Source: Chthoniobacterales bacterium
GTDB lineage: Bacteria > Verrucomicrobiota > Verrucomicrobiia > Chthoniobacterales > UBA6821
Length of the DNA: 64,000 bases
Direction of reading: 5' to 3'
NCBI GenBank assembly: GCA_019747895.1
Contig: JAIEQF010000013.1
Location: 67,104-131,103, forward strand
Under the pieces are notes generated by a model that saw only the letters and a program-made list of their open reading frames with translations, was not told the DNA's origin and did no database searches. Each line of letters starts with the position of its first letter. The stretch's first letter is position 1. The position numbers and the translations under genes were made by a program. Positions 52,265 to 54,070 of this stretch are shown here, one piece after another.

Positions 52265-54070
52265 ATGAAGGCAAAAACCAACCGCTTACTGATTTTAGCA
52301 TTGCTGTTTTTTCTTGTTGGATCGACAAGAGAACTTGTTGCTTTCCCCATGGAGAGAAAGGGTGAGGAAAAGAAAGCTTCTCCACTTGGTTCTATAGCCG
52401 CTACAGAAGAGAAGCGTAGAGAGTCTGAGGTTTCCGAAGAGGATGATGAGGATTTGGATAAGGGAGATTTTTCTGGAATTCGCGAGGAAAATTTTCCTCG
52501 AGAAAGAAACCACGGAATCCAAGAGAGTGCGCGAACCGCTTTACAAGAGCCAGTGAATAAGGCGAGAGAAGCTTTTAAAGAGCTTCTTGATAATTCCTCA
52601 AGACAAGAGGAACTAAGACCCAATATCTTAAATCTCTTAAAAAATTATGAAGACCAACGCCAAGCTTGGATTGCAGAAGCAACAAGCCAAAGGCTCGCCG
52701 AGGTCGAGTCATTAGAAGAAGCAACAAAAGAAATCACTTTTTCCATCATCGAGAAGTTGGATTTTAGCACGGAAGAAAATGCTGCTGTTTTTTGGACCGG
52801 CTACACCTTAGAGAATCAAAGAATCGCGATGGACTATGCCAGAGAGCAAGGAAAAAAGACCATCGAAATGACACGCGATGGAATGCTGCTCGATCAGCTT
52901 GGAATGTACAAGCGTGACAGTCCTATTTTAGACGCTGATGAACATGGCCCCATCGAAGGCAAAAGTAAACTTGGAGATCTCCTCTTTGCTGCTGCCTCCA
53001 CGAAGTTTGCTCAAGGGGTTCATGGAAAAGTGACGGCCATTATCTACAAGCCCCAAACACCAGAACAACAAGCCGCCTATCAGAGATCGGCCTACGCTCG
53101 CATTGAAGAGCCGATTTTATTGGAAAGAGAGCAGCGAGGAGAGCCTGTTCTCTTTGTATCAGGAAACGGGCGTGTTGAGGTTCCAGTAGATATTATCCTT
53201 CCAGCATTAAAAGAGTTATTAAAAAAAATTGATGAGATTCAAAAAGAGATTGAGTTGCTAGCTGGAGAGAAAGCTATTCTGGAAGAGATGTGCAAAAGAG
53301 CCTCCATAGATGAGGAGATAACAGCGACAGAAATCAAAGAGCTTAAGGAACGCCTCATAAATTTAATGATTAAAAGAAAAACAATTATTGAACCGCAACA
53401 GCTTCTACTTGAAAAAAAAGAAGCCTTGAACAAAAGGAATATAAAAAAGCGTGACAAGGCGGAGGTAGGACTTAAGCAAGCAGATTCAGAAATAAAAGAA
53501 ATAAAAAAATGGTATGATGGTAGAATGCAGAATGGTAGTAATTGGGAGCGTATGATAACAGGTGCAATTGGGAGAATTATTTCAAAACCAAAAGAAACTG
53601 AACTTGAATACTGGGATAAGATAGTAAATCACAGTGTGCCTCAGCCTAAATTAATAGCTGAAAATGTTAGACATCCACAAAAGACAAAATATAGAGAGGC
53701 AGTTGCGCTTGTTTATGATATTGAGGCTGAAATTGCTTTTGATCAGGCTAAGCTTGAGTGGGAAAGGTATCCTAGTTCTGAGAATTTTAAAAATTATAAG
53801 ACTGCCGAAACAAAGGTTAAAGATATTAGTAATGCAACCATCAATTCTATTAAGATTTATGAGATTATTGAAGAGCTTGAGATGCTTGAAAAAGATGGAG
53901 TTAAGGGTAAGTTGATTAATGATGCACTTCAGCTAAGAACTTATGTTAACTATAAGGAAGCTTATGAAAATTATCTTCAAGCTATTGAAATGCGTGCTGT
54001 TGGTGACATTTCAGCATTCAAGGAGTATTTAGAAAAGGCAAAGCAAAGTGAGTTACTGGCGAAACATTAA
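52265..54070 (+). CDS. Secreted protein: signal peptide, ADP-ribosyl-cyclase (CD38-like) NADase-type domain, then coiled coil
   Basis: MKAKTNRLLILALLFFLVGS signal; motifs FWTG, TIEMTRDG, FAAASTKFA, SAYARIE match the order and spacing of CD38 LWS, TLEDTLLG, WKTVSRRFA, STFGSVE as I recall them. Confidence 0.7.
   Translation: MKAKTNRLLILALLFFLVGSTRELVAFPMERKGEEKKASPLGSIAATEEKRRESEVSEEDDEDLDKGDFSGIREENFPRERNHGIQESARTALQEPVNKAREAFKELLDNSSRQEELRPNILNLLKNYEDQRQAWIAEATSQRLAEVESLEEATKEITFSIIEKLDFSTEENAAVFWTGYTLENQRIAMDYAREQGKKTIEMTRDGMLLDQLGMYKRDSPILDADEHGPIEGKSKLGDLLFAAASTKFAQGVHGKVTAIIYKPQTPEQQAAYQRSAYARIEEPILLEREQRGEPVLFVSGNGRVEVPVDIILPALKELLKKIDEIQKEIELLAGEKAILEEMCKRASIDEEITATEIKELKERLINLMIKRKTIIEPQQLLLEKKEALNKRNIKKRDKAEVGLKQADSEIKEIKKWYDGRMQNGSNWERMITGAIGRIISKPKETELEYWDKIVNHSVPQPKLIAENVRHPQKTKYREAVALVYDIEAEIAFDQAKLEWERYPSSENFKNYKTAETKVKDISNATINSIKIYEIIEELEMLEKDGVKGKLINDALQLRTYVNYKEAYENYLQAIEMRAVGDISAFKEYLEKAKQSELLAKH

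Follow-up and report, generated by a model that had tools for sequence, protein, structure and literature searches.

Does a verrucomicrobial protein with a signal-peptide-like N-terminus carry an ADP-ribosyl cyclase (ARC) domain of the type known from metazoan CD38, and, if so, on which cells might it act? This question is raised by an open reading frame (ORF) at positions 52205..54070 (+) of a 64,000-nucleotide stretch of DNA from a Chthoniobacterales bacterium (GenBank assembly GCA_019747895.1, contig JAIEQF010000013.1, positions 67,104 to 131,103 of the forward strand), referred to below as the window. The ORF codes for 621 residues from its first ATG, at 52205, from which residues are numbered throughout, or for 601 residues from M21 at 52265. 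An initial annotation, made without database searches, had placed a secreted nicotinamide adenine dinucleotide (NAD+) glycohydrolase with a CD38-like motif set in the interval 52757-53130, which lies inside this ORF, and had proposed that the enzyme could alter host signaling or act as a toxin. On the evidence of profile comparison and structural modeling, residues ~165-330 are a genuine, divergent member of the ARC/CD38 fold (bacterial ARC, or "Tox-ARC"). We further consider it likely that the protein is an exported ARC-fold NAD(P)+ glycohydrolase/cyclase of a large, effector-like verrucomicrobial subfamily that probably acts on other cells, its catalysis, product, export and target being what we infer.

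Homology and predicted fold of the ARC domain

The relationship becomes visible when the domain is considered together with its family. Residues 96-350 were compared exhaustively by phmmer with 1.84 billion cluster representatives, which yielded 63 representatives at E<=1e-3, one of them being the protein of the window itself, and 16 at E<=1e-10. An alignment of 54 sequences cut to the shared core of these matches (alignment A1) was then compared as a profile with all PDB chain sequences. Its best match was 9ouf_A (2.4e-16), followed by 9ro8_A, which is labeled "ADP-ribosylcyclase toxin" (6e-15), and it also matched porcine CD38 (3e-11), Aplysia ADP-ribosyl cyclase (7.5e-11), bovine CD38 (3e-8), human CD38 (~1e-5 to 4e-5) and CD157 (3.6e-3). 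When the members of A1 were scanned singly, 51 of the 54 matched Pfam family PF02267 (best 1.8e-9), individual matches being seen only below threshold. By sequence comparison, membership in the ARC family is reached transitively, through the family profile, and not by the curated Pfam cut-off. A "Ribonuclease" label attached to 9ouf_A was considered as evidence for RNase activity and ruled out, since both the title of the PDB entry and the corresponding paper identify it as the ADP-ribosyl hydrolase Tac1.

Searches of other designs returned less. Against Pfam and NCBIfam, the full-length protein gave no ARC match and noise only (RelA_SpoT, 0.094; CdsD_C, 0.31), and single-sequence phmmer against the PDB gave chance matches only (GntR, 1.2; CG4930, 0.35). 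A word-index homolog search with the full protein found the protein itself only, coiled-coil words having filled the candidate list. In a second profile search, many matches carried precomputed PF02267, RHS or PAAR annotations, and the close giant relatives described below were not among the matches of a profile word-index search. Scanning of a genome collection with a subfamily alignment (A2) revealed five loci, and a metagenome scan four distant loci, with the close relatives absent from its matches.

The check proposed with the initial annotation, AlphaFold followed by Foldseek with a non-ARC fold as the refuting outcome, was carried out, and the fold obtained is ARC-like. AlphaFold2 run on A1 produced a model with a predicted local distance difference test (pLDDT) score of 91.7 and a predicted template modeling (pTM) score of 0.87, in which the two-lobed α/β fold of ARC enzymes is present. 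In a Foldseek comparison with the PDB, ranks 1-25 were all occupied by ARC enzymes at probabilities of 0.99-1.00, namely Aplysia cyclase, bovine, porcine and human CD38, CD157 and the bacterial toxins 9OUF and 9RO8. TM-scores ranged from 0.41 to 0.57 when normalized to the query and from 0.58 to 0.65 when normalized to the minimal bacterial ARC structures; relative to the ARC structures, the query model is extended by a helix at its N-terminus and a tail at its C-terminus, and ~20 residues are inserted in a loop. We hold the ARC homology and fold of this domain with very high confidence.

Within the protein, the domain as modeled spans residues 165-330 (52697..53194, +), as delimited by A1, the profile and AlphaFold2, and its conserved core comprises approximately residues 183-312 (52751-53140). 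It is preceded by a helical lead-in of ~residues 102-164 (52508..52696, +), conserved in the closest subfamily only: blastp and phmmer matches to the relatives P0002, P0003 and P0006 begin at residues ~89-112, and the segment is helical in a single-sequence AlphaFold model, at low confidence. Residues 336-621 (53210..54067, +) form a C-terminal region rich in E, K, I and L, and for these 286 residues phmmer against all collected relatives detected no homolog other than the protein itself. The initial annotation had called this region a long coiled coil; it is what is left of a once longer C-terminal extension, since disrupted by frameshifts and a MITE (see below).

Active site and characterized ARC enzymes

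Four motifs had been proposed as the counterparts of CD38 active-site segments, and reading of the DNA shows all four within the ORF in the order claimed. W197 (TGG, 52793..52795, +) lies within AVFWTG, residues 194-199; the motif KTIEMTRDGMLLDQL starts at residue 218, and E221 of TIEMT is encoded by GAA at 52865..52867 (+). In LLFAAASTKFAQG..GKVTAII, F261 is encoded at 52985-52987 and S265 at 52997-52999, so that the segment FAAAS occupies 52985..52999 (+). Finally, the Glu residue of RSAYARIE, E301, is found at exactly 53105-53107 (GAA, +), as had been given, and is predicted to be catalytic. Across A1, T219, T223, G226, G274 and E301 are invariant (54/54), S265 is kept in 53 sequences and E221 in 51. 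Position 197 is W in 44 sequences and Y in the other 10. At position 261, 37 sequences have W and 17 have F, the latter including all 10 of the closest relatives.

Alignment of CD38 to the A1 profile equates W125 with W197, E146 with E221, W189 with F261, S193 with S265, F196 with F268 and E226 with E301, and the printed profile alignments to porcine CD38 (5bnf) and Aplysia cyclase agree with this mapping. The CD38 query sequence was checked by its literature numbering. The correspondences drawn in the initial annotation are the same as those given by the profile alignment, and the CD38 motifs that it quoted agree with the numbering W125/E146/W189/S193/E226 in both the CD38 query sequence and the porcine 5bnf alignment. 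W197 would thereby be the counterpart of the substrate-stacking Trp, and E301 that of E226 of CD38, E573 of Tac1 and E179 of Aplysia cyclase, while E221 would correspond to E146 of CD38 and E516 of Tac1. The sole departure from the CD38 active site is the Phe at the position of W189, the second Trp, where an aromatic side chain is retained.

Bacterial ARC domains of polymorphic toxins were predicted as "Tox-ARC" in a survey that gave [ST][DE], S and E as their signature and Imm74 as the usual immunity protein, and whose phyletic list does not include Verrucomicrobia (Zhang et al., 2012; PMC3482391). This signature is present here as T219-I-E221-M-T223, S265 and E301. The two active-site Trp residues, which are typical of the characterized ARC enzymes, lie outside the 2012 signature.

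The best PDB match of the family profile, Tac1, is an LXG toxin of the type VIIb secretion system of Streptococcus parasanguinis, which hydrolyzes NAD+ and NADP+ via a cyclic ADP-ribose (cADPR) intermediate (Colautti, Kim & Whitney, 2025; PMC12356396). In Tac1, E573 is essential and E516 drives hydrolysis of the cyclic intermediate; replacement by Ala of any active-site residue tested, the three Trp included, profoundly reduced activity, Phe not being among the substitutions (PMC12356396). The window domain (Foldseek TM-score 0.58, normalized to the target) shares with Tac1 a minimal ARC core without the disulfide-rich additions of the metazoan enzymes, as well as both Glu residues and the first Trp. 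The two differ in that Tac1 serves an LXG toxin as its C-terminal warhead and is accompanied by the Imm74 immunity protein Tci1, whereas the window domain is N-proximal, in a protein with a predicted Sec signal and no immunity gene among the scanned neighbors, and has Phe in place of the second Trp. It also has the additional N-terminal helix and the loop insertion, and identity in the Foldseek alignment is 17%.

The second-best match (6e-15; Foldseek TM-score 0.65, normalized to the target) is ARCtox, the type VI secretion system toxin PANA_2924 of Pantoea ananatis, in which ARC is combined with PAAR (PDB 9RO8); it poisons E. coli and yeast alike by depleting NAD(P)+ and produces no cADPR (Martinkus et al., 2025; PMC12605009). 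Its tetrad W273/E299/W323/E356 corresponds to W197/E221/F261/E301. In ARCtox, the ARC domain is C-terminal to PAAR and transmembrane helices and has an adjacent immunity gene, whereas the only such element of the window protein is a predicted Sec signal peptide. A third bacterial enzyme, Nac1 of Actinophytocola oryzae, is a secreted non-toxin ARC with a signal peptide and no immunity gene, has Ala at the position of CD38 E146, and yields cADPR and ADP-ribose (ADPR) in about equal amounts (PMC12356396). The window protein appears to resemble Nac1 in having a Sec signal peptide and, among the neighbors scanned, no immunity gene, and it too is outside a polymorphic-toxin context; it differs in being much larger and in having Glu at position 221, so that the loss of the second Glu seen in Nac1 has not occurred. 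Both characterized bacterial toxins with Glu at the two positions produce ADPR only (PMC12356396, PMC12605009). Aplysia cyclase also has both Glu residues, and the ADPR:cADPR ratio is therefore not predictable from sequence.

The metazoan enzymes of PF02267, namely CD38, CD157/BST1 and Aplysia cyclase, share this fold and arrange their active-site motifs in the same order, and, as in CD38, the catalytic domain of the window protein is predicted to lie outside the cytoplasm, preceded by a hydrophobic segment at the N-terminus. Set against these enzymes, the window domain has ~11-23% identity in the Foldseek alignments, a sub-threshold PF02267 match and Phe for W189, and it lacks their conserved disulfides and extra C-terminal subdomain elements. 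A weaker Foldseek match (E ~1e-2, probability 0.96-0.99) was obtained with the RDTND NADase of the MARTX toxin of Vibrio vulnificus (8K9Z and 8KA1), which, by the PDB titles, was crystallized as an NADase domain with a calmodulin-binding domain. We take this domain to sit in a very large secreted multi-domain toxin, an architecture akin to that of the giant proteins of the present subfamily. The MARTX enzyme differs in that its profile match is not significant (E 0.64) and in its delivery machinery (repeats, CPD), which is absent from the window protein. The window domain is probably catalytically active.

Protein architecture, relatives and genomic context

M21 (52265) is probably the true start of the protein. 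From it, a signal-peptide-like N-terminus with visible n-, h- and c-regions can be read, MKAKTNR / LLILALLFFLVG / STRELVAF (52265..52345, +), as the initial annotation had noted ahead of the motifs. Closely similar starts, in which MKK is followed by a hydrophobic segment and by VSA, GNA or ASG and then M, are found in P0002, P0003, P0006, P0049 and the ARC protein of locus L003, and these similar signal peptides in subfamily relatives support both the choice of M21 and export. We consider it likely that the protein is exported.

The ten closest relatives are 36-62% identical to the window protein within the domain. P0002 to P0010 range from 576 to 1673 residues, with the ARC domain N-proximal or central, and the L003 protein has 1690 residues; P0002 (MBX9743397.1) comes from a metagenome-assembled Chthoniobacterales genome, and L003 from the same assembly. 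P0003 excepted, no other Pfam domain was found in the closest relatives. P0003 (1581 residues, from a Logan assembly) combines a signal peptide, a eukaryote-type ubiquitin C-terminal hydrolase (UCH) domain at residues 95-377 (2.7e-16) and ARC at residues 456-685, an architecture that is effector-like. The 90% cluster of P0010 includes members from the protist sets MMETSP and EukProt, which hints at a protist association of the P0010 lineage but says nothing of the lineage in the window. Both Chthoniobacterales ARC loci are flanked by housekeeping genes, namely those for a radical SAM enzyme and for menaquinone biosynthesis.

As had been remarked from the sequence, this architecture is unlike that of typical polymorphic toxins, and no clear immunity gene is present. 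In the window protein, ARC occupies ~residues 165-330 of 621 and is thus not at the extreme C-terminus, and it is N-proximal or central in the relatives as well. Pfam and NCBIfam revealed no trafficking domain (RHS, PAAR, LXG or TPS) in the protein or in its closest relatives, and PADLOC no defense-system match for it. What lies immediately downstream is a leftover of the ARC gene itself. Among the scanned neighbors, none was recognized as an immunity gene; for ORF 54239-54673, Pfam and NCBIfam gave no Imm match and PADLOC a marginal match only (0.0044). These features set the window protein apart from classical polymorphic toxins.

The gene occupies a variable slot of ~3 kb between nudix and gspF (52187..55086) that has no counterpart in two relatives, L010 and L012. 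These share with the window the order suf genes, mutL, nudix, gspF, FUSC, HlyD, OEP and GH31, at 87-99% DNA identity; homology ends at the nudix stop codon and restarts just before gspF. The GC content of the slot is 40.5%, against ~47% in its flanks. In L012 the slot contains a PDDEXK_2 transposase-like gene, and in L010 (12875-14673) an 88-residue ORF with a signal peptide overlapping a 514-residue ORF. The first 115 residues of the 514-residue protein resemble the N-terminus of P0040 (E=7.5e-16), a protein of 834 residues with an ARC domain at 619-757. An ARC domain is absent from the L010 protein itself; the likeness suggests that these secreted proteins form a modular family whose domains can be exchanged. 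The ARC gene is strain-variable cargo. A functional link to the Nudix and gspF genes was rejected: both are syntenic in relatives that do not have the ARC gene, and its adjacency to them is therefore incidental. The neighboring MutL is 84-86% identical to MutL of assemblies labeled Verrucomicrobiota/Verrucomicrobiae and 55-58% identical to Chthoniobacterales MutL; L010 and L012 are two of these relatives. A chlamydial origin, suggested at first by the GC content and the T2SS gene, was rejected because the relatives of MutL are verrucomicrobial. Scanning of the window for Rfam families and tRNAs gave no match.

The 3' end of the gene is broken. Three-frame translation and colinearity with relatives indicate a decayed continuation at 54068..55047 (+). 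Five in-frame stops occur between 54068 and 54238, the first at 54068-54070, and another frame is open at 54052-54245; this shifted frame carries MEAYQAWL, a repeat of KEAYENYL in the ARC ORF that reads correctly only there. From the in-frame stops, the open alternative frame and the repeat, two compensating frameshifts at A-runs can be deduced. ORF 54239-54673 shares the frame of the ARC ORF, and a further coding fragment follows at 54823-55047. The giant L003 protein matches segments 54365-54628 and 54829-54930 colinearly, through its residues 919-1030 and 1044-1077, and so does P0049, through its residues 968-1060 and 1076-1124. Between these segments a 168-nucleotide element resembling a miniature inverted-repeat transposable element (MITE), with 32-nucleotide terminal inverted repeats (TTATAGTCAAATTACTTAGAACTTACAAG...), is inserted in the gene tail at 54655..54822, where it provides the stop codon of ORF 54239-54673 and precedes the further coding fragment. 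The ancestral gene would have reached ~55047 and, with the MITE left out, have comprised roughly 870 codons, of which those for the putative signal peptide, the ARC domain and ~290 further residues are still intact. The frameshifts could be assembly errors, which is less likely for the MITE insertion.

A second MITE copy, 96% identical, lies at the right edge of the slot (55087..55254), just before the gspF end, and others occur in L003 (15764-15926, 85% identity) and L010 (15455-15600, 95%), with a 33-nucleotide remnant in L012 (13944-13976). The L003 copy adjoins a PDDEXK_2 transposase-like gene, and it is a gene of the same family that fills the ARC slot in L012.

Also dispersed through the genome is a repeat of ~120-150 nucleotides with at least eight copies in the window, located at 49901-50060 (in mutL), 61407-61629 (in GH31), 17346-17495, 1915-2039, 2813-2893, 22968-23110, 28489-28690 and 63202-63320. 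In some genes it lies in frame inside an intact coding sequence. Compared with L012, MutL is longer by 50 residues and GH31 by 63, the inserted peptides being alike (..NN.VAPVLASSS..TLSRC.P.AP.SS..). Among relatives, copies were found in L003 (3641-3768 and 15647-15736) and in the Nudix gene of L010 (12391-12512), which codes for 282 residues there against 206 elsewhere. The repeat resembles the Rickettsia palindromic elements, which are likewise in-frame gene insertions.

Elsewhere in the window, two ORFs have no Pfam or PADLOC match, 36316-38706 (+, 796 residues) and 47331-49106 (-, 591 residues), the latter being syntenic in L010, L012 and L013 (571-597 residues, also unannotated). A SulP sulfate permease fused to a β-carbonic anhydrase (6484-8685, +, 733 residues) and a 614-residue protein with a Ser/Thr protein kinase domain (3532-5376, -) are ordinary, and help to show that the gene content is not strongly reduced.

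Possible function and significance

By homology, NAD+ or NADP+ would bind in the cleft between the two lobes, stacked on W197 and F261. E301 would stabilize the ribosyl oxocarbenium intermediate while nicotinamide departs, and the intermediate would then be cyclized and/or attacked by water with the assistance of E221, giving ADPR, possibly some cADPR, and nicotinamide. Carrying a predicted Sec-type signal peptide, the protein would fold only outside the cytoplasm, so that no immunity protein would be needed. It would belong to a subfamily of large (900-1700 residues), mostly helical proteins, many with signal peptides, with two members from Chthoniobacterales-type Verrucomicrobia, and the present copy would represent either a truncated yet functional product of 601 residues or a gene in early decay. 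Its most likely role would be that of an effector or toxin, either secreted or located at the surface, which degrades NAD(P)+ and is directed against other cells, be they of a eukaryotic host, prey or competitors; for the specific claim that the activity is directed at other cells, our confidence falls somewhat short of even.

Several observations weigh against this interpretation. The single-sequence PDB search was empty and the single-sequence AlphaFold model poor (pLDDT 46.6), so that the domain assignment rests on the family profile; on its own, the window domain scores E=0.0037 and 17.1 bits against PF02267, under the gathering score of 25, and the Foldseek E-values are modest (2e-4), with root-mean-square deviations of 5-7 Å. 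The second active-site Trp, that of CD38 W189, is Phe, which has to be seen beside the effects of Ala substitution in Tac1. The putative signal-peptidase site (VAF/P) is non-canonical; cleavage is ambiguous, and the N-terminus could instead be an uncleaved membrane anchor. A promoter and terminator scan gave no signal above chance. Nothing in the window points to a eukaryotic host of the organism, and its gene content (GH31, an IlvB-type enzyme, Suf proteins, efflux components) looks free-living. Lastly, given the broken tail and the MITE, the gene could be no longer functional or expressed.

The last point leads to an explanation that is compatible with an effector origin, namely that the gene is in decay and its ARC domain a functionless relic of a longer effector gene. 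The five in-frame stops at 54068-54238 beside an open alternative frame, taken as two frameshifts, the MITE inserted in the colinear tail, the dispensability of the slot in two close relatives and the abundance of small mobile repeats in the genome all speak for it. However, no interruption affects the first 621 codons, which cover the signal peptide as well as the complete ARC domain, all conserved catalytic residues are kept, a truncated product may work in a subfamily whose members range from 576 to more than 1600 residues, and the A-run frameshifts might be artifacts of assembly; on balance, decay appears rather unlikely. Alternatively, the protein might be an extracellular non-toxin ARC that, like Nac1, serves the physiology of the producing cell, by sensing or scavenging NAD(P)+ or by generating a cADPR signal. 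The criteria applied to Nac1 by Colautti et al. (PMC12356396) were two, a signal peptide and a missing immunity gene, and both appear to apply here. Nevertheless, the Ala of Nac1 at the CD38 E146 position explains its cADPR output, whereas E221 is a Glu as in the toxins. Nac1 is a separate enzyme outside any toxin system, whereas domains of the window type are embedded in large effector-like proteins, one of them with UCH. The ARC gene is also strain-variable and outside any metabolic operon, and its Nudix neighbor is conserved whether or not ARC is present. We regard a Nac1-like role as unlikely.

A classical antibacterial Tox-ARC polymorphic toxin, delivered by a type V, VI or VII system and paired with a cognate immunity protein, would be hard to reconcile with a domain in the N-terminal third of the protein, with the absence of RHS, PAAR, LXG or TPS domains, with a downstream region made up of a remnant of the same gene in which neither Imm74 nor any other notable Pfam or PADLOC match was found, and with the housekeeping genes that flank the Chthoniobacterales homologs; it is very improbable. 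That the likeness to CD38 might be a chance motif match in a helical or low-complexity protein would fit the lack of significant results in the single-sequence searches of Pfam (full-length) and the PDB. It is refuted by profile matches reaching 2.4e-16, by PF02267 matches in 51 of 54 family members, by top-ranking structures that are ARC enzymes only and by the invariance of E301, and its likelihood is practically nil.

A bolder variant of the effector interpretation would see here an undescribed class of Sec-exported giant effectors of Chthoniobacterales-type bacteria, which would use ARC against a eukaryotic host or prey, either by depleting NAD(P)+ or by producing Ca2+ messengers of the cADPR or NAADP type. 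It fits the member that combines ARC with UCH, the cluster members from protist sets and the swappable, strain-variable slots, and we rate it as speculative and quite improbable.

The idea is less novel than the initial annotation assumed, given that Tox-ARC was predicted in 2012 and that two toxins and one secreted non-toxin ARC were characterized in 2025. The enzyme class is already known; what is new is the architecture, the phylum and the Trp-to-Phe change. Apart from one secreted enzyme that is not a toxin, the earlier bacterial ARCs were described as the C-terminal warheads of antibacterial toxins that depend on contact (PMC12356396, PMC12605009). The present locus extends the bacterial ARC family to Verrucomicrobia and to a different architecture, with a predicted Sec signal, an N-proximal ARC domain, a long helical extension and no immunity gene among the scanned neighbors, and with relatives of up to ~1700 residues, one of which has a eukaryote-type deubiquitinase domain. 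The natural Trp-to-Phe change at the position of CD38 W189 provides a ready test of the share of this residue in the balance between cyclase and hydrolase activities. The window copy may be decaying, and the intact giant relatives are probably better subjects for experiments. If active and delivered to eukaryotic cells, such proteins would give environmental or symbiotic bacteria a new means of manipulating NAD or Ca2+ signaling, and they would also contribute data on how CD38 arose from bacteria. If the host-directed interpretation is true, they would form the first ARC-type family of host-directed effectors in the Planctomycetes-Verrucomicrobia-Chlamydiae (PVC) superphylum, and would bear on the proposal that metazoan CD38 originated from bacterial conflict systems.

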